From contig JAEOUA010000010.1 of NCBI GenBank assembly GCA_016839555.1, positions 160,001 through 224,000 on the forward strand: a stretch of DNA of 64,000 nt. Reading direction: 5' to 3'. The stretch's first letter is position 1. Each line of letters starts with the position of its first letter. This DNA comes from Promethearchaeota archaeon. Lineage in GTDB: Archaea > Asgardarchaeota > Lokiarchaeia > Sigyniarchaeales > SOKP01. This document shows, in pieces, positions 5,426 to 61,701 of the stretch. The translations under genes were made by a program, and so were the position numbers. The notes beneath the pieces are model-generated. The model was not told the DNA's origin and made no database searches. It saw only the letters and a program-made list of their open reading frames with translations.

Positions 5426-5920
5426 TTAATCTCCTTGTTCAATTCTTTTCTCTAAAACGATTAAGATGGGATTAAATCCCGCTTTCGAGAAAATCTTTAT
5501 TAATTTATCTTGAGCACCATAACCAATATTTATCCTAATGGATTCACATCCCCAACTGGAGAGTATCTGGACAGCTCTATCTGCCAATATTTTCCCTACT
5601 TGCTTTCCAATATATTCTTTTTTCGTGGCCCAATTATCTAAATATCCAATATAATTCCCCAGGGTGTTTTTAACAGCTTCAAGCATTCCCATACCAATAA
5701 CTTCTCCTGTATCCTTTAGCTCCGCAATTAGAGTGATTCTTTTTAAATTTGGTTTAAATTGTCTAAGACCCGAGCTTTTTTTCCATTTTTCTTCTTCTAA
5801 CCCAATATCATATTTATCATGAAGCTGTTGGAGGATCTCGAGGGTTGCTTCATAATCAGAAGTGCGATAATTTCTAATAATAATCTCATCTTCTTCTATT
5901 ATCTCATTTTCATTAGCCAT
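5426..5920 (-). CDS. GNAT family N-acetyltransferase
   Basis: IIRNYRTSD start, EYIGKQVGKIL motif A, FSKAGF motif B. Confidence 0.75.
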   Translation of the reverse strand: MANENEIIEEDEIIIRNYRTSDYEATLEILQQLHDKYDIGLEEEKWKKSSGLRQFKPNLKRITLIAELKDTGEVIGMGMLEAVKNTLGNYIGYLDNWATKKEYIGKQVGKILADRAVQILSSWGCESIRINIGYGAQDKLIKIFSKAGFNPILIVLEKRIEQGD

Positions 5921-5941: not shown

Positions 5942-6967
5942 TTAGTTAATATTTTTAAAACTTTCTAAATTTATTTTTTTCGCAAGTAATTTTTTATTAT
6001 CTTCCATTTGAATTAAGAAAAAGAGATATTCGTCAATATGCGGAATGATTGGACTAATGAATAGTAATTCTTCATTTGGATACCACTCTTCTATTTTTTG
6101 ATTCATGATCTCTTTTTCAAAAAACTCTTTTACATGCGTAATTTTAACAATAATATTTTCATATTTTTTGTCAGTATTATTACTTGCTAATATTTCTACT
6201 TCTTCAGAATCTTTACTAATTGAAATATCAATTATGTTAAAGGGTTTAACCAATTTCAGTTCTTTTTCAGATTTTTTCGTTGGATCAAAAATTTTAATAT
6301 TTGAAAAACTTGATTCATCACTATTTAGAATATATGAAACATCAATACCTTTTAATGCAAGAAAGGATAATGCCTTTTGTTTTTTGATAGAACTAGTATC
6401 TCGTTCTTTAATGACTGAAGAAAAAAATTCTTTGCAGTTGTTTCTAATTAATTTTTTCATTTCTTCCTTAATTTTTTCCCCTTTTTCAATAGTTTTTTGT
6501 GTTTTCGGAGTTTTAATGATTTCCTCTTTCGCTATTTCACATTCAATTAATTCATAGAGCTTTTCTTCATATTTATCTTTCACAAGTTGGGTTACTTTCC
6601 TTATTAATTCATCTCCAAATATATCTAAATCATCTGGAAGGGATATTATAACAACTACAGTCTCTGGAGTTTCTTTTTCTAATCCTGCCCTGCGTTTTTC
6701 TCTTAATGATTTGGCTAGAAATTTTTTTCCAAAAAATGTATATCCCTTATATTCGAGATCTATATGATCTAATGCTTTAGACTCTTCTATTTCAAGGAAC
6801 CAGATGGGATGGTATTTTATAGGGCGCATAAAATCTCTATTATTTTTTAAATCCTCGTTGGGACACATAAATAGAGGGATATGTCCTTTAGACTCATCGA
6901 AATACATGAGATATACATAACAAAGCTCTTCTAATGTATCTTCCATTTTAGCAGTAATTTTAGCCAA
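5942..6967 (-). CDS. DENN/longin-like eukaryotic signature protein with C-terminal Ig-like domain
   Basis: N-terminal VYLMYFDESKGHIPLFMCP resembles the uDENN/longin FD-x3-G-x6-P hairpin; RRAG..ETVVVII strand; beta-rich C-terminus. Confidence 0.55.
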   Translation of the reverse strand: MAKITAKMEDTLEELCYVYLMYFDESKGHIPLFMCPNEDLKNNRDFMRPIKYHPIWFLEIEESKALDHIDLEYKGYTFFGKKFLAKSLREKRRAGLEKETPETVVVIISLPDDLDIFGDELIRKVTQLVKDKYEEKLYELIECEIAKEEIIKTPKTQKTIEKGEKIKEEMKKLIRNNCKEFFSSVIKERDTSSIKKQKALSFLALKGIDVSYILNSDESSFSNIKIFDPTKKSEKELKLVKPFNIIDISISKDSEEVEILASNNTDKKYENIIVKITHVKEFFEKEIMNQKIEEWYPNEELLFISPIIPHIDEYLFFLIQMEDNKKLLAKKINLESFKNIN

Positions 6968-49693: not shown

Positions 49694-50836
49694 TTACTCA
49701 CGCCCTAATTTATAATTGTCTTGAATCCCCATTTTTTTTAAAAATTCTAAATAACGCTTAATTTTATTTTTCGCAAAATTATTAATAAGATCCCTCATTT
49801 TTTCTTGTTTAGCTTCCCCCAAGTCCACACAATCAAAAATATCGCTTTCTTTTGCTTTAGTAAATATTTTTTGTCCTTTCTCTGTTCGTGGGATCACAGT
49901 TGTAAATTTATCTTGAGAACCTAATCCCCCAAAAGAAATATCGGCATATATATTTGTAAAATCACTACATGCGTTACATGCAGTCCGCATATAATCATTT
50001 AAATGATTAAATGGTAGATGGATTGTTCTTTTGTTGTTGTCCTCATCGTGTATCTTGAAGATTAAATCTTCTTTAATATTTATCTTTTCTACCTGTTTTA
50101 AATTTATATTAAAATCTTTTTGGAATTTCTCAATTTGAGCTTTTTCAAAAAAGAAATTTTCATAACAAAATAATCCTAAACATACTTCAATATTTTGTGA
50201 AGGAGTAACTCCTAAAGCTTGCATACATCTTATGGTATATATTTGACAAGGAGTCCCCACCACAGCTAATTTTTTAAATTTATAATGATTTAATTTTGGG
50301 ATGGAATGCGTATAAGTAGAGAACTTCTGAACCTCATTCAATTGAGTAGAAATATCTAAAGTGGCTCCAGAAGCTTTAATTAAATCCTCTTTATTATAGG
50401 CAATTGCGGATTCCCTTGAAAAAGGGCTCTCCATTTTTGCCACAATCGCACCATCAATAATATTTTCTTCAATTAAAAAATTAATTAATGAATTTACAAC
50501 TCCTCCATCTGTACCAACTTCTAAAAATTTACTGTCTTTAGATTGACAGGAATATATTTTGTCGTAATGTCCGATTGGCATTTCATGAAAATCTAAACTT
50601 TTATAGGTAGTATCAAGTTCTTCATGCAGATAATGGGTTTGGGGGCAGATCACGTAGCAAATCCCACATTCGAGACATTTATCTTTATTAATATATTCTG
50701 GAGGAGCATTAGGTTTTGTAAAACCTATAACATCATATTCTGCCGAGCTGCAGAAGGAAACGCACCCTCCACATTCTTGGCAAATACCTTTATCATGAAC
50801 TTCAGTAATTAAATCTTCAAAAGTTTTTGGACTCAT
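49694..50836 (-). CDS. Coenzyme F420 hydrogenase/dehydrogenase beta subunit (FrhB/FdhB/FpoF family)
   Basis: 2x[4Fe-4S] N-terminus, DGGVV, VVGTPCQ, GLFC, CNACSD, ADISFG. Confidence 0.9.
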   Translation of the reverse strand: MSPKTFEDLITEVHDKGICQECGGCVSFCSSAEYDVIGFTKPNAPPEYINKDKCLECGICYVICPQTHYLHEELDTTYKSLDFHEMPIGHYDKIYSCQSKDSKFLEVGTDGGVVNSLINFLIEENIIDGAIVAKMESPFSRESAIAYNKEDLIKASGATLDISTQLNEVQKFSTYTHSIPKLNHYKFKKLAVVGTPCQIYTIRCMQALGVTPSQNIEVCLGLFCYENFFFEKAQIEKFQKDFNINLKQVEKINIKEDLIFKIHDEDNNKRTIHLPFNHLNDYMRTACNACSDFTNIYADISFGGLGSQDKFTTVIPRTEKGQKIFTKAKESDIFDCVDLGEAKQEKMRDLINNFAKNKIKRYLEFLKKMGIQDNYKLGRE

Positions 50837-50853
50837 AATAAAATAAGATTTTT

Positions 50854-52362
50854 TTATTCATTTTTATTTAATTCAATAGATTTTGCTTTATTTCTTTTAC
50901 TTCCACCAATTCTTTCTACAAGGAATTGCCCAGGTTTAACTTCTGTTAGTTTTTTAAATTCTATTAACCCCGCTTTTACTGCCCCCTGAAATATTTCTTC
51001 TCCCGCCTTAGATCGTATAATAACTGCAGATGATCCACCAGGTGCTCCAATTGATCCCACAGAAATGTCTGCATATTCTGAGGTTAAATCATCACAATAG
51101 TGACAAGTATCGCGAGCATAAGACTGAACATCTTTAAGTGGAACATTTTTTTCCTCTCCGTTTTTTAGATTAATAATAAATTTCCCACTATCAATATTCA
51201 TCTTGGTTAGATTGTTAATGTCTTCATTGAACTGTTCTCTTACTAGTTTAATGATATTGTCGTAAGAAAAACTTTCCATGCAGAATAATCCTATGCGATA
51301 TGTTATATTTTTAAAGAATGGAAGGCCACTGGGAAATAATTCCCCTTTTACAAGAGCGTTCATCATACAAGGAACTCCAACAAGTGCTATCCGCTCATAA
51401 TTTTTTGCTTTTTCGAGGATATTTAATGAGGGAGCGTTCGCATATTTTGTACCCGCCGTTTTATATAAGTCTTTTACATCATCTACAATTACCGGTTCTG
51501 GTTTCCATAATTTATCTGAATGTTGTACGGCAACAATCGCATCGACAAGATTATTTTTAAGCAAATATTCGAGCAAAGAAGTAACAATCCCACCGTCCTG
51601 CCTAACCTCCTTGATTTCATCCTTAGTAGTAGTGCCAGAATAAGTTTTTAGATATGCACCTATTTTTTCCGAAAATGTCAGTGAATTATCAAGCTTTTTT
51701 ATGGTTTCATATGCTCTATTCATTGAGAAAGAGCGAGGGCAAACGGTAAAACATAGGCCGCATTTCATACATTTGTCTTCATCTAATTCAAGATGATCCG
51801 CGGTAACATTGATCGCATTCACCGGACAGATTGCCGAACAAAACCCGCAATTAACACATACCCCCACCTCATCAATTATTGACACAGGTTCAAAATAATG
51901 TTCTTTGAGATCCATCTCAGTATCTTTGGCTTTATATCGATAAAAATACTCCTTTTCCTCTACGACTTTTTCTTCCCCTTTAATTGTTTTCTTTACCTTC
52001 TTGGTTTTTACTTCAACTTGCTCTTCTACATATCCTTGTTCTTTTAAATAGATTACATCTCTTATTACATTTTCTGGTGGAATATCTTTAAATTCCTTGA
52101 CAATTTCCTCTAAAAATAATGCTTCATCGATATTTTTCATTTTTTTCAGGATATATCTGCGCTCTGTTTCAGCATCAATCATGGAATCTAAAATTTCGTA
52201 ATATTCCTGTTCTGTATATTTACTACATTCTAAAATCTCATCCTTGGCCTCAAAAAAAGCTCGAATTTGAAAATTCATTGATGCTTCAAAGGTAGCGTCT
52301 AATAGATCTTTCGGGGATATTTTTTCGAATACCTTTTTATCCACTTGTTGTAGCATTACCAT
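50854..52362 (-). CDS. FrhB-family protein with N-terminal helical/winged-HTH-like extension
   Basis: CVNCGFCSAICP, CMKCGLCFTVCP, QDGGIVT, GVPC, GLFCME, CHYCDD, ADISVG; about 160-aa N-terminal domain. Confidence 0.88.
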   Translation of the reverse strand: MVMLQQVDKKVFEKISPKDLLDATFEASMNFQIRAFFEAKDEILECSKYTEQEYYEILDSMIDAETERRYILKKMKNIDEALFLEEIVKEFKDIPPENVIRDVIYLKEQGYVEEQVEVKTKKVKKTIKGEEKVVEEKEYFYRYKAKDTEMDLKEHYFEPVSIIDEVGVCVNCGFCSAICPVNAINVTADHLELDEDKCMKCGLCFTVCPRSFSMNRAYETIKKLDNSLTFSEKIGAYLKTYSGTTTKDEIKEVRQDGGIVTSLLEYLLKNNLVDAIVAVQHSDKLWKPEPVIVDDVKDLYKTAGTKYANAPSLNILEKAKNYERIALVGVPCMMNALVKGELFPSGLPFFKNITYRIGLFCMESFSYDNIIKLVREQFNEDINNLTKMNIDSGKFIINLKNGEEKNVPLKDVQSYARDTCHYCDDLTSEYADISVGSIGAPGGSSAVIIRSKAGEEIFQGAVKAGLIEFKKLTEVKPGQFLVERIGGSKRNKAKSIELNKNE

Positions 52363-57352: not shown

Positions 57353-58948
57353 ATGAAAAAGATAGAGTTAGCACCTAAGGAGATTTTTGAGAAAAGAAAT
57401 GAATTAGGGTTAAATAATTCATTAAAAACTCTTTTAGAAATCATTGATCACGGAGAAGAGGCATCACGAAGAAAGCTGGCACTCTTCTATATAAGATCCT
57501 TTGAGGATATTCCTCAGAATTTAAAAATGGAATGTTTTAATAGCTTAGAAGGAATAATAATTTCCGATACAAATATTGAGTTAAAATGCGAAGCCGCAAA
57601 ATCCTTAGGAAAATTAAAAATAGAAAAATCAATTGAACCTTTAAAATGGTTATTAGAACAGCCTTCAATTAATTATGAAGATAAAAAGGTAATATTGAAG
57701 GCAATTCATGATTGTAGATTTAAAGAATCAGAAATAGAGCTATTTTTGGACCATTTAGATTCTCATTTCAAATCAATTAGAGAATATGTGAAAAATGAAT
57801 TATTAAAATTAGATCCAGAAAGAGCAGTACATTTATTCTTGGATTATTTTGGTAAAAAACCATCCAATGAAGCAAAAAAGGAAATTATTAAATTACTAGG
57901 ATATGAGTTATCGGGATTAAATATTTCTTTTGATGATTTTAGTTATATTAAATCAAAATATCCAGAAATTTTAAATAATCTAATTGATTATATAGATGAT
58001 TTGCTTGATATCCTCTCCATCATGAAAGAAGAGGATATAGAGCTTTTTGAAAATCTTATAATAATCTTTAATGTTCTTCATGAACATGTAAACGAGAAAC
58101 TGATTGAATTTCTTGATAGTGAGGATTTTATTGCTAAGGAAAATGCTATAAAATTGATAGGGGAATTAAATATAAAAGAAGCGAGTGATAAATTAGTTAA
58201 AAATATTGATAATGTCTATAGTGACGTGAGTTTAGCATCAATTGAAGCTCTGGGAAAGATTGGTGATATTTCTCTTATTCCAGATTTAGTAAAAGCTTTA
58301 GATATCGAAGATCCAACTTTTGAATATGCTGATTATACATTAAAATGGAATATTATAGAATCCATTAAAAAAATCTATTTAAAAAATGAAGAAATTTCAT
58401 ATGATTTTTTAATAGAAAAACTTAAAACTTCAAATGAGATTTTAAAAGAGAGTATTGCATATATTTTAGGAGAAATAGCCAAAGAAGATTTCACTGATCC
58501 TTTACTCGGAATCTTAAAACAATGGCATAATATTGATGTAGCTAAAAGTATTGTTATTGCATTAGGAAAAATTGGTGAATTGAGGGCAGCAAAACGATTT
58601 TTAAAGATAATTAATGATCCAGGAACATATTGGCTTCTTAAAAAAGTAACAGTAGATTCATTATATAATATTTTCAAAAAGAATGGACATTTTATGAAGA
58701 TTGATGGTACTGAAGAAAAAAGAACCCTAATTAAGCATAGAACAGAGTTAGAAGAGTATCTTACTAATAATCCTGATGAAAATCAAAAAGTTAAGGTTGC
58801 TATTATAAAATTACTTGAAATATTTGGGGATAAAACTTCAATCCATGCGCTTATGAAACGGCTTGATGATTTCCATCGAATAGTAGGAATCTCTGCTTCG
58901 AAAGCAATTAAAAAAATCGAGAAGAGATTAGAGATGGAACCTAATTAG
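57353..58948 (+). CDS. HEAT/PBS-lyase repeat protein
   Basis: Repeated AAKSLGKL, AIKLIGEL, IEALGKIG, AYILGEI, VIALGKIG units. Confidence 0.88.
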   Translation: MKKIELAPKEIFEKRNELGLNNSLKTLLEIIDHGEEASRRKLALFYIRSFEDIPQNLKMECFNSLEGIIISDTNIELKCEAAKSLGKLKIEKSIEPLKWLLEQPSINYEDKKVILKAIHDCRFKESEIELFLDHLDSHFKSIREYVKNELLKLDPERAVHLFLDYFGKKPSNEAKKEIIKLLGYELSGLNISFDDFSYIKSKYPEILNNLIDYIDDLLDILSIMKEEDIELFENLIIIFNVLHEHVNEKLIEFLDSEDFIAKENAIKLIGELNIKEASDKLVKNIDNVYSDVSLASIEALGKIGDISLIPDLVKALDIEDPTFEYADYTLKWNIIESIKKIYLKNEEISYDFLIEKLKTSNEILKESIAYILGEIAKEDFTDPLLGILKQWHNIDVAKSIVIALGKIGELRAAKRFLKIINDPGTYWLLKKVTVDSLYNIFKKNGHFMKIDGTEEKRTLIKHRTELEEYLTNNPDENQKVKVAIIKLLEIFGDKTSIHALMKRLDDFHRIVGISASKAIKKIEKRLEMEPN

Positions 58949-59206
58949 ATTCATCTTGATCCAGATTACAATTTTCTGTTATATTTATAGCCTCTTTCTC
59001 TTGATATAAGGTTTATATTTTTTTTAATTTACAGAAATTTAAATATTCAGAGAGTAAAAGATAAACTGTTATCTTCTTATTTTTATTTTATTTATCAATA
59101 AATTTTTTTTTAAACTTCCATTACTCTAAATAGTAAGCTTTTTACAATTTATTAATTAGAAATAGATATTGATGAATAAACTAGATATTAATAAACTGAT
59201 AAAGTC

Positions 59207-60700
59207 ATGACGGAAAACGAGGTTAATCAAGAGCAAGCTAGTGAAAAATACAAGTATAGCTTTGACTATATCCAACATAAGTTAGAGGGAAAGAAAGATT
59301 CATTCGGAATGTTGATGAAAGAAATTGTACGAACAGGAATCTGTACGCAATGCGGTACTTGCGCAGCCGTCTGTCCGGTCCTTGAGTGGGACCATCTTGC
59401 TGGTGAACCTAAACTGATTGGGAAATGTACTGGCTGCGGAATTTGCTATAATCAATGTCCCCGGACAATTACTGATCCTCACCAACTTATTGGAGAATTC
59501 AAAAGCGGCTATGTAGCAAATACGAATATACCGGAAGTTATCGGTTATCAAGATGGGGGCACAGTAACCAGTCTAATTTGTTATCTTTTTGATGAGCATT
59601 TAATTGATGCGGCGATTGTGACCATGAAAGATCCAAAAAATCCTTGGCATCCAGTACCCCAAATCATCACCAGTAAGGATGATGCGATTAAAGCTGCTGG
59701 TTCGATTTATTGCCATTCTCAAACAGTGGATGCATTAATGGAGGCTGTGAGACAAGACTATCGCTCAATTGCCTTTGTTGGAACGCCTTGTAATATTGAT
59801 GCGGTCAATAAAATGTTTAGTTCTCCCGCAGGAATGCTCAAATATTTTATGCGGGCCCATATCCTTACCATAGGGTTATTTTGCATGGATTCATTTTCCC
59901 CAGAAGCGTTATACCCTTATTTTAAAAAGGATGGGATTGATTTAGAGAAGGTAGTAAAAATGGATATCAATAAAGGAAAATTTCACCTTTATTATGATGA
60001 AGATGGAGAACCCGTAAAATCTTATACGATTAAGAGTCTAGATAAATTTAAATCCTCAAGCTGTAATTTTTGCACAGATCTTACTTCTGAGAATGCTGAT
60101 ATATCCGTTGGATCTGTAGGAAGTGGTCCCAATAAAAATACAGTTTTCGCAAGAACTGGTATTGGAGCAGAACTCTTAGAAGACGCGGCAAAAAAGGGTT
60201 ATTTAACTATTGAGCCATTTGATGCGATTAATTTAAATGCGGTCTTTTTTCTGGCAAAATTGAAAAAGGTCGCTCAATATAATATTCAAAAGCGGAAAGT
60301 GTTTATTGTCAGAGATGTGGAAGAGGAAGAGGAACCGAAAATAGAAACTAAAAAAGAAGAAAAAGAATTGGATATAAAACCTATTATTGATTCTCGACGT
60401 GCAATAAGCCTAAAGAAAGAAGTAAATGAGGAGGCTAAAACTCTCGAGTTATCAATCACGAATACAATTGGATTTATACTTGAGGATTTGAAAATAAGAA
60501 TAGCCAGCATAGACGAGGTTTTCGAAAAGAACGTATGGGTTACAAAAATAACAGAACTATTTCCTTATGAAAGTATAGAAATTGATTATCCCTTAGAAGA
60601 AGACGGAGAACTTCAGCTGGGGAAAGTACTCATTGAAGCATCGACAGAAAGTATTGGGAAAATTTACTCTAAAACTTATGATCTTTCCCCTAAAAAATAA
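59207..60700 (+). CDS. FrhB-family F420-binding Fe-S flavoprotein with acidic linker and C-terminal Ig-like domain
   Basis: CTQCGTCAAVCP, CTGCGICYNQCP, QDGGTVT, GTPC, GLFCMD, CNFCTD, ADISVG; EEEEE linker then beta-rich domain. Confidence 0.88.
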   Translation: MTENEVNQEQASEKYKYSFDYIQHKLEGKKDSFGMLMKEIVRTGICTQCGTCAAVCPVLEWDHLAGEPKLIGKCTGCGICYNQCPRTITDPHQLIGEFKSGYVANTNIPEVIGYQDGGTVTSLICYLFDEHLIDAAIVTMKDPKNPWHPVPQIITSKDDAIKAAGSIYCHSQTVDALMEAVRQDYRSIAFVGTPCNIDAVNKMFSSPAGMLKYFMRAHILTIGLFCMDSFSPEALYPYFKKDGIDLEKVVKMDINKGKFHLYYDEDGEPVKSYTIKSLDKFKSSSCNFCTDLTSENADISVGSVGSGPNKNTVFARTGIGAELLEDAAKKGYLTIEPFDAINLNAVFFLAKLKKVAQYNIQKRKVFIVRDVEEEEEPKIETKKEEKELDIKPIIDSRRAISLKKEVNEEAKTLELSITNTIGFILEDLKIRIASIDEVFEKNVWVTKITELFPYESIEIDYPLEEDGELQLGKVLIEASTESIGKIYSKTYDLSPKK

Positions 60701-60792
60701 AAACTAAAATAAGTCTTTATATTACACAACTTAAAAGAAAAAGAATATAATTAATAATAATAGAAGATAAAGATAAAGGAGGCAAATTTAAA

Positions 60793-61701
60793 ATGAAAAT
60801 ATCATTAGTGGGCCTTTCTGGCTGTGGTAAAACATCACTTTATAGTGTGGCATTTGCAGCAAAAAGCCCCGAAGATACGAAATCGTTAAGTCCCACTATC
60901 TTGTATGAGACAAGAAGACATCCTTTTTTAGGTTTACAAGTTGGTATATTTGATTTCGGCGGACAAGAACAATACAGAAAGGAGTACATGGAAAAGCCGG
61001 AAGTCTTCAAAGGCACGGACATCCTGATACCCATTATTGATCTCCATGATCCTGACAGATTTGAACAAGCGAAGGAATATTTTGATGGATTGTTAGATAT
61101 TTATCGCAAGAACAATGAAAAACCGAAAATCTTCTTATTTTATCATAAATATGATACCGAAGATTATGAAAAGGAACTTCTTGATACAAACATCAAAAAG
61201 GCACGTGAAAAATTTGAAGGGATGTTTGAAGGATATGAATCAAAATCCTATCTTACCAGTATTTATGATCAAGATAAATTAGCTAAGATTTTTAGGGATA
61301 TTTTAATCTCCTCTTATGAAGAATTAAAAGGGCATGTGGAAAAGGCGGAGAGCGATTTGGAAGAAATTAATGCTAAAATAATTATTTCCGATATATCTGG
61401 AAATGTTATTGTCCATAATGTAAAAGGAGTAAGTAGCGGGCTCACTTTAAGAGGCGATCTACGAGACTTTATAAATGCATGCAACACTGTGAGAGAGAAT
61501 GTTTTCATGTCGGATTCAGCTCAATTTAAAGGCAGTAATGAGGATGGTAAAGAAATTGATCTACACATCTTTAAGTACATCATTTCTGTGCTAATCATGA
61601 AAACTGGCGAAATAGACATGGAATCACAAGACAAAATCAATATCCTTTTGAATGATATGAAACTCTTTGCAGATCTCATTATTAGCGCTCATACTGAATA
61701 A
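60793..61701 (+). CDS. Rag/Gtr-like small GTPase with C-terminal roadblock domain
   Basis: G1 GLSGCGKT, G2 PT, G3 DFGGQ, G4 HKYD, G5 TSIYD (Rag hallmarks HKxD and TSI); tail IIISDISGNVI; SD AAGGAGG upstream. Confidence 0.85.
   Translation: MKISLVGLSGCGKTSLYSVAFAAKSPEDTKSLSPTILYETRRHPFLGLQVGIFDFGGQEQYRKEYMEKPEVFKGTDILIPIIDLHDPDRFEQAKEYFDGLLDIYRKNNEKPKIFLFYHKYDTEDYEKELLDTNIKKAREKFEGMFEGYESKSYLTSIYDQDKLAKIFRDILISSYEELKGHVEKAESDLEEINAKIIISDISGNVIVHNVKGVSSGLTLRGDLRDFINACNTVRENVFMSDSAQFKGSNEDGKEIDLHIFKYIISVLIMKTGEIDMESQDKINILLNDMKLFADLIISAHTE

Follow-up and report, generated by a model that had tools for sequence, protein, structure and literature searches.

Two longin-domain complexes serve as GTPase-activating proteins (GAPs) for the Rag GTPases of eukaryotic cells: FLCN-FNIP acts on RagC/D, and NPRL2-NPRL3 of GATOR1/SEACIT acts on RagA/B. 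Small GTPases resembling those of eukaryotes, together with longin or roadblock proteins, are encoded by the dozen in Asgard archaea as well. Here we describe a set of genes around one Rag-type GTPase of a Promethearchaeota archaeon, located in a 64,000-nucleotide (nt) stretch of contig JAEOUA010000010.1 (assembly GCA_016839555.1) that we call the window; coordinates below are window positions unless a locus identifier (L and a number) is given. Three otherwise unrelated proteins, namely an enzyme of the FrhB type encoded next to the GTPase, a longin protein, and an arrestin-like protein encoded beyond the end of the window, end in the same private immunoglobulin (Ig)-like beta-sandwich of about 95 residues. 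We find this domain, hereafter the tail, to be rare and the gene cluster to be conserved, and the FrhB-tail protein and the Rag orthologue follow the same pattern of occurrence among families.

Some of the parts are already known. Rag-like proteins with a GTPase-roadblock architecture have been described in Asgard archaea (PMC10933270), and FLCN/NPRL2-like longins of Asgard archaea are also published; GAP longins have a “GP motif” before strand 2, beside the arginine finger, and some Asgard longins have both (PMC12290439). Matching the Asgard GTPases to their regulators is described as hard (PMC10933270), and the question of which GTPase the GAP-type longins serve has been posed (PMC12290439). 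Neither of these papers reports a conserved operon joining longins and Rag-like GTPases, and FrhB has 0 occurrences in PMC10933270. As a rule, Asgard GTPase genes do not share operons with genes for longin or roadblock proteins, so that partners cannot be assigned to them (Tran et al., PMC10933270), and most of the eukaryote-like genes lie outside conserved neighbourhoods according to a study with no mention of FrhB or arrestin (Liu et al., bioRxiv 2020.10.19.343400). Our literature search, with most subscription papers outside its reach, found no paper on the module or on the tail domain.

A C-Terminal Domain Shared by Three Proteins

A sequence-only reading of this DNA had aligned 50 residues of the FrhB-type protein without gaps to a second protein encoded 52 kb upstream, and had proposed that the two share a C-terminal domain. 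Translation of nt 60443-60592 and 6199-6050 reproduces that alignment: residues 413-462 of the 497 in the FrhB-tail protein lie against residues 257-306 of the 341 in the longin-tail protein, with 14/50 identities and 35 residues left to each C-terminus. The similarity is well above chance. The ungapped BLOSUM62 score of the two 50-mers is 68, compared with 20.2 ± 7.1 (maximum 51) for the best 50-mer in shuffles, and none of 2000 composition-preserving shuffles of the tail reaches it (z 6.7); BLASTP of one tail against the other gives an E-value of 4e-4. When all 3.7 Mb of the genome are searched in six frames with the FrhB tail, the longin protein (E 0.09) is the sole match besides the FrhB-tail gene itself. 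Comparison of the tail alignments A3 and A4 by hhalign (17 FrhB-tail and 41 longin-tail proteins) gives a probability of 91% and E 1e-6 over 62 columns. Bridging sequences were taken from 27 loci of eight other Asgard families, where the hidden Markov model (HMM) of the longin tail matches FrhB tails at 1e-8 to 1e-17 and the HMM of the FrhB tail matches longin tails at 9e-5 to 9e-13. The combined alignment of both tails covers the whole domain with two small gaps, and keeps as invariant an F, the E of FEK/FET, the E of FPxE, and a P; the FEK/FET and FPxE motifs are kept in the three host proteins and in several Asgard classes. The tails are homologous.

The third carrier had no place in the sequence-only reading, and neither had the recurrent CBS partner described below. 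It is a protein of 376-407 amino acids (aa), its gene lies on the downstream side of rag in most other-family loci, and its C-terminus is matched by the tail HMMs. Nineteen such proteins compared with the combined tail profile give a probability of 96% and E 4e-9 over 88 columns, and their tails have N-x-S...G-(V/A)-T-x-K...LFE(T) in common with the other tails. The N-terminal part has a weak match to Arrestin_C (E 0.004, 17.9 bits against a cut-off of 27.7; E 0.035 in a relative), and we refer to the protein as arrestin-like.

The structure models tell the same story. The AlphaFold2 model of the FrhB tail, with a predicted local distance difference test (pLDDT) of 88.9, has seven strands of 8, 8, 12, 13, 7, 8 and 9 residues; in the model of the longin protein (pLDDT 74), the tail strands are 9, 8, 12, 13, 7, 8 and 9 residues long. 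When the ESM Atlas was searched by shape with the FrhB tail, the best matches were its own cluster, at a template-modelling (TM) score of 0.78, and, at TM 0.77-0.79 with root-mean-square deviations of 1.9-2.6 Å, a trio of clusters whose Promethearchaeota proteins are 344-346 aa long. These are the same three clusters found by a feature search with the longin protein, a search that returned only unnamed Promethearchaeota clusters. Generic Ig-like domains rank lower, at TM 0.68-0.74. Against solved structures the fold is that of an ordinary E-set sandwich, with accessory domains of GH2/GH3, transglutaminase and DUF3244 at Z 8-10; the lipid-binding sandwiches of RhoGDI and PDEdelta match at TM about 0.5 and Z 9.9.

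While the fold is common, the domain itself is rare. The C-terminal ~110 residues of the FrhB-tail protein match no family in a Pfam scan, and a profile of both tail types run against 1.84 billion cluster representatives finds 60 at E <= 1e-3. The proteins of these clusters are about 330-357 aa or 490-510 aa long, with one of 641 aa, and the remainder are short fragments. Pfam, applied to 45 of the clusters, recognises FrhB domains in six, CBS in one and a weak WxLIP_HBD in one, and nothing in the others. The only hosts seen are FrhB-type enzymes, longin(-CBS) proteins and, by profile comparison, the arrestin-like protein. Profile comparison, cluster search, Pfam partners and the ESM Atlas thus agree that the proposed shared domain is real and rare, and with three host architectures it is not a promiscuous one.

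In a tree of 74 tails the grouping follows the host protein rather than the genome: 5 label changes are needed, where shuffles need 35.8, and a single clade with a support of 99 holds the arrestin tails. It is a quick tree of 103 columns only, with many forks unresolved. Since the tails follow the host protein and not the genome, the three fusions are old, and recent exchange between neighbours does not account for them.

A Conserved Gene Cluster around One Rag GTPase

The FrhB-tail gene lies co-oriented 92 nt upstream of rag, as the sequence-only reading had stated, and this adjacency turns out to be conserved in 57 of the 59 loci examined. Within the genome's own family, rag is directly downstream and on the same strand in 27/29 loci; one of the two exceptions is at a contig end, and the other has rag ~5 kb away on the same contig. 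Rag adjoins FrhB-tail in all 30 further loci, which are the 27 from the eight other families and three metagenome contigs of close relatives. The order in most of the other-family loci is CBS, longin-tail, (CBS or Peptidase_C25), FrhB-tail, Rag, arrestin-like-tail. At one locus of family f7 (L045:6777-8672), a single protein of 631 aa combines the longin-tail protein with four CBS domains, and this Rosetta-stone fusion links longin protein and CBS partner. In the genome's own family the unit is dispersed: the HEAT-repeat, FrhB-tail and rag genes stand together, the arrestin-like gene is 6.3 kb downstream, and the longin gene is 52 kb upstream. The unit has been split in this family, and the longin gene has moved away and become paired with a GNAT gene.

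The two central genes also go together at the level of genomes. The FrhB tail was found in 144 and the Rag orthologue (E <= 1e-60) in 156 of 400 genomes of the phylum. Both are present in families f1, f2, f4-f7, f16, f20 and f21 and in one genome among the unnamed families, and neither is present in any of the 21 other named families. Rag and FrhB tail are found in 112 and 109 genomes, respectively, out of 134 in f1, in 19 and 10 out of 22 in f16, and in all genomes of f2, f4-f7, f20 and f21. We give these counts without a statistic because related genomes are not independent.

Several families add genes of their own to the cluster. In f16 (L044:7811-9906, L057, L058, L060-L062, L065) there are two tandem longin-tail paralogues of about 312 and 344 aa, which recall the paired longins of FLCN-FNIP and NPRL2-NPRL3, and most f16 loci have one or two extra Rag-like paralogues (283-358 aa) a few genes away. 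In f20 and f21, a Peptidase_C25 (gingipain-type) protein of 670-870 aa with CarboxypepD_reg-like domains is encoded between longin-tail and FrhB-tail (L040:7059-9080, L042:6138-8750, L043, L051-L053, L059, L063, L066, L067). In f21 (L040:246-2864; L051, L067), the arrestin-like gene is followed by two to four tandem genes for proteins of ~425 aa with a C-terminal V4R domain, a fold related to TRAPPC3/Bet3.

The GTPase and Its Candidate Partners

The GTPase had been called Rag-type from the sequence, and the profile searches bear this out. Pfam Gtr1_RagA (PF04670) matches at 1e-24, with 87.7 bits against a cut-off of 22, and a profile of 28 orthologues finds RagA at 6e-21, Gtr1 at 2.5e-20 and RagC at ~1e-12, while Arf-type GTPases come only at ~1e-9. 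Judged by these scores, it belongs to the Rag/Gtr family, nearest to RagA/Gtr1 rather than RagC/Gtr2 and far from Arf. The Rag-type motifs GxxGCGKTS, T35, DFGGQ, HKYD and TSIY are invariant or near-invariant in the 28 orthologues, those invariant being T35, DxxGQ (54-58), HKxD (118-121), which replaces NKxD as is typical of Rags, and the TSI of G5 (155-157). The C-terminal ~120 aa are conserved too, with the Gtr2 alignment extending to profile position 229, and the orthologues are 46-63% identical across families over both domains.

The core of the FrhB-tail protein matches FrhB_FdhB_C at 3e-42 (144.4 bits) and FrhB_FdhB_N at 7e-21 (74.7 bits), both above the Pfam cut-off, together with Fer4 families. 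Among solved structures, the closest are 8riu_B (3e-48), 7np8 (F420-dependent sulfite reductase, N-terminal half; 1e-44) and FrhB itself, 3zfs_C (9e-37). These matches make it a member of the FrhB/FdhB family (PF04422 + PF04432); by the curated NCBIfam cut-offs given below it is not a true FrhB or FpoF. The cysteines of the iron-sulfur (Fe-S) cluster motifs are all invariant in 19 orthologues, as are C195, C226, C286 and C289; mean column identity of the core is 84% within the family, and every cofactor motif is invariant. F420 is a plausible ligand because the genome has biosynthesis genes for it, namely CofD, CofE and CofH, the last at 456.5 bits and above its cut-off. The window has an Hdr cluster 4 kb from the module, and the redox neighbourhood of the module is partly conserved as well. 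Tail-less FrhB-type genes occur near the module, here at 49694-52362 (-), within the Hdr cluster, and also in L042, L053-L055, L059, L063 and L066.

The longin-tail protein had been taken for DENN-like, and only its longin (uDENN-type) N-terminal domain bears this out. There is no Pfam DENN match at E <= 1; the protein is a longin (uDENN-type) domain followed by helices and the beta-sandwich, and a DENN-domain identity was dropped, as the central and downstream DENN modules are missing. What stands is a longin protein: its fold is FLCN/NPRL2-like, and outside this family its gene clusters with FrhB-tail and rag. Residues 14-185 match FLCN (6nzd_H) at Z 10.5 and NPRL2 at 10.2 (9v0j_A) and 10.1 (7t3b_B), and all fold matches of the protein fall either in 14-197 (longin) or in 189-341 (sandwich). 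None of its 403 homologues has a Pfam domain, its longin profile reaches a best E of 1.6 against PDB sequences, and NCBIfam has no match for it or for the arrestin-like protein. Two loops of the longin domain are strongly conserved. The b1-b2 loop has a near-invariant FDE..GH, which across classes becomes F-(D/H/N)-E-x-x-G-H (alignment A10), and the b4-b5 loop reads S-x-R89-x-K91-x-R93-x-G95, with R89, K91, R93 and G95 near-invariant across Asgard classes. The R-x-K-x-R-x-G loop is only a candidate arginine-finger site.

Genes at the Locus

The coordinates of the genes and domains are collected in Table 1.

Table 1. Genes and domains of the module in the window.
Feature	Position	Strand	Description
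FrhB-tail gene	59207..60700	+	497 aa; Fer4 x2 + FrhB_N + FrhB_C (Pfam) + shared tail
FrhB-tail protein, parts			CxxCxxCxxxCP ferredoxin motifs at residues 46-56 and 74-84; FrhB_N 104-177; FrhB_C 186-339; acidic linker ~369-398; tail C-terminal
Shared tail on FrhB	60404..60682	+	Residues ~400-492; seven-strand Ig-like beta-sandwich; motifs N-x-(T/S), FE(K/T), FP-x-E, P
Rag/Gtr-family GTPase gene	60793..61701	+	302 aa; G domain ~1-175, conserved C-terminal domain ~180-302
Longin-tail gene	5942..6967	-	341 aa from TTG; FLCN/NPRL2-like longin domain, helical linker, shared tail
Longin domain	6569..6928	-	Residues 14-133 (secondary structure from model)
Shared tail on longin protein	5969..6241	-	Residues 243-333
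HEAT-repeat gene	57353..58948	+	531 aa; co-oriented upstream of FrhB-tail; Pfam HEAT_2 9e-27
Arrestin-like-tail gene	contig 227991-229199 = window coordinate 67991-69199		Outside the window; 6.3 kb beyond the rag stop

The spacer between the FrhB-tail gene and rag is AT-rich, with a TATA-like TTTATATT at 60716-60723 and a GGAGG at 60778-60782, 10 nt upstream of the ATG. From its letters it could be compatible with an internal promoter or with translation inside an operon transcript. The region 57353-61701 is recorded in DNA metagenome runs from marine sediment and marsh, and no RNA run is listed for it. A HEAT-repeat neighbour (~530 aa) is found directly upstream of FrhB-tail in three close-relative loci besides the window (including L005:4202-5794 and L009:961-2559; L006/L010 also) and is absent from the 27 other-family loci, where CBS and longin genes are on that side. 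Between rag and the arrestin-like gene lie ilvE, genes for a BNR-repeat protein and a HAD hydrolase, and three unnamed open reading frames. Two more small GTPase genes are located 2-4 kb past the arrestin-like gene, at L047:9178-9774 (-) and L047:10918-11466 (-), equivalent to ~71.2-73.5 kb in the window; one codes for an Arf/Ras-like protein of 198 aa and one for a Ras/Rab-like protein of 182 aa, and a similarly placed Arf/Ras-like 198-aa gene is present in L005.

The start of the longin-tail gene is probably Met8 (nt 6946), because the database forms of the same protein are 334 aa long. A GNAT acetyltransferase gene (164 aa, 5426-5920, minus strand) begins 21 nt past its stop. This gene pair, with an MR_MLE gene of the enolase superfamily lying divergently upstream, is seen on two other contigs of the family (L075:3112-3606; L076:6075-6560), in which the longin proteins are 54-59% identical, and the longin-GNAT pair looks like a family-specific operon.

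Interpretation and Alternatives

In our reading the genes of the window are one copy, now dispersed, of a module that is ancient in Asgard archaea and has a single Rag/Gtr-type GTPase at its centre, with the tail as its docking module; for this reading as a whole we would put the chances at about even. The three proteins would use the tail they have in common to dock or assemble on a single platform, for which the likeliest candidates are the dimer of the Rag GTPase and a scaffold attached to it. Through its conserved R-x-K-x-R-x-G loop the longin protein may regulate the GTPase in the manner of a GAP, and the arrestin-like protein may be an adaptor or effector. The FrhB module and the recurrent CBS protein could then couple the switch to the redox and energy state, the FrhB module serving either as a sensor, of the reduction state of F420 or ferredoxin, or as a regulated output. 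The full reading, redox or energy sensing through the Rag switch, is doubtful as yet. The same tentative standing, with the odds against it, goes to the idea of an archaeal forerunner of Rag nutrient sensing, in which one Rag would be the meeting point, by way of the private docking domain, of a FLCN/NPRL2-like GAP of the longin type, an effector resembling arrestin and a pair of metabolic sensors; the sensors would be the F420/ferredoxin-linked flavoenzyme and a CBS adenylate sensor, and redox or energy state would set the nucleotide state of the GTPase.

It should be pointed out that a number of observations weigh against the docking reading or parts of it. The tail HMMs made from close relatives only (A3, A4) did not cross-match: searched against this genome, each recovered just the gene of its own type at E <= 10, so the link between the tails rested on profile-profile comparison and on sequences from other families. 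The longin fold is matched by the SNARE Sec22b (Z 10.3) as well as by FLCN and NPRL2, and Z is 9.9 for the Loki longin 8yqg. In place of the published GP motif there is G28-H29, whose position in the b1-b2 loop agrees with that of the motif, but the Pro that follows (P31) is not kept in other classes. The FrhB core is below the NCBIfam cut-offs for both TIGR03289 FrhB (170.1 against 331.5 bits) and NF040616 FpoF (126.4 against 475). In family f16, rag and FrhB-tail are transcribed towards each other, and its loci gave no sign of an arrestin-like gene. Co-expression in this genome is not to be assumed, because the longin gene is 52 kb off and unrelated genes separate the arrestin-like gene. FrhB-type genes and Hdr clusters are often nearby, and the FrhB-tail enzyme may serve ordinary electron transfer. 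Physical contact among the proteins of the module, and an effect of redox on the GTPase, are what we infer; the sequence-only reading had likewise suggested that the tail could dimerise or dock and so link F420 redox state to the switch. A complex prediction for the Rag (A6) and the FrhB-tail protein (A7) scored 0.01 against a mark of 0.32, a result that counts neither for nor against.

A first alternative makes the FrhB-tail protein a working metabolic enzyme, an F420H2- or ferredoxin-linked electron-transfer subunit tied to the neighbouring Hdr/FrhB clusters, which the Rag places or switches; the enzyme would then be the output. This fits with the strong conservation of the core and its cofactor motifs, with the catalytic F420-linked modules that are its nearest solved relatives, and with the FrhB-type genes beside the module in several lineages and the Hdr cluster in the window. 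Yet no partner enzyme is consistently adjacent across lineages, and those neighbours that are consistent (Rag, longin, arrestin-like, CBS) are of the signalling type. We consider this explanation unlikely, though a serious one.

The tail may, on the other hand, be a general-purpose Ig-like domain used for membrane or lipid attachment, solubility or self-association, one that co-locates or stabilises its hosts without building a defined complex, in which case the adjacency of the genes would reflect co-regulation only. The common E-set fold and its likeness to the GH2/GH3, transglutaminase and DUF3244 domains and to RhoGDI and PDEdelta are what one would expect from such a domain; a wide spread would be expected as well, yet we see 60 clusters of 1.84 billion and three hosts tied genomically to one GTPase, with the FEK/FET and FPxE motifs kept over those hosts and several Asgard classes. 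This makes it rather improbable in our view. Hardly any weight is left for chance or composition in AT-rich, Lys/Glu/Ile-rich proteins combined with an accidental FrhB-Rag adjacency. The pairwise identity of 28% and the single-sequence E of 0.09 in the whole genome might suggest it, but it is refuted by the composition-keeping shuffles, which never reach the score, by bridging sequences at E down to 1e-17, by structures at TM 0.78, and by the synteny of 57/59 loci. Gene conversion among neighbouring tails was dropped too, the tails grouping by host protein in the quick tree of 103 columns.

Comparison with Known Systems

What the module offers one Rag-type GTPase is a specific, conserved set of partners, made up of a GAP candidate, an adaptor candidate, and two proteins of metabolic input or output. 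The private tail marks the partners, and deleting or mutating it is a clean experimental handle. Cultured Lokiarchaeia are worth checking because orthologues are widespread in the family of this genome, which the database names of close homologues place in the Lokiarchaeia. If the docking reading is true, Rag was coupled to metabolic state before there was a eukaryotic cell; and were the forerunner idea to hold, the link from longin GAP to Rag to metabolic sensing would predate eukaryotes, lysosomes and TOR.

Each part of the module resembles something known and differs from it. The likeness of the tail to the Fn3-like domains of GH2/GH3, to DUF3244 and to RhoGDI/PDEdelta is that of a seven-strand sandwich, at Z 8-10 and TM 0.4-0.5; unlike these Ig-like and E-set sandwiches it has no Pfam family, is 5-20% identical to them, and is private to Asgard archaea, where it sits on three cytoplasmic hosts. 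The FrhB-tail protein has the same domain order (2x[4Fe-4S] ferredoxin + FrhB_N + FrhB_C) as FpoF, the N-terminal half of Fsr, and FrhB, but it is neither fused nor adjacent to a hydrogenase, Fpo or sulfite-reductase partner, and it carries the C-terminal Ig-like tail that is absent from those enzymes. The Asgard FLCN/SMCR8-type GP-motif longins (PMC12290439) and the Rag-like GTPase-roadblock proteins (PMC10933270) come from the same phylum and belong to the same two protein classes, with the difference that the motif in the present longin family is G-H and not G-P.

The comparison with the eukaryotic Rag systems is the most instructive one. The module has one GTPase gene and not a pair of the RagA/RagC type, no Ragulator, TOR or lysosome is involved, and the longin protein has its Ig-like tail in place of a DENN or NPRL2 C-terminal domain; the Fe-S flavoenzyme, the arrestin-like protein and the CBS partner have no counterpart in the eukaryotic complexes. 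What the two have in common is a Rag/Gtr GTPase with a longin protein tied to it, here by gene linkage, and the archaeal longin resembles FLCN and NPRL2 in fold (Z about 10). This putative GAP also has a conserved Arg-rich loop, a candidate site, and a Gly-containing b1-b2 loop at the places where the catalytic motifs of GAP longins sit.

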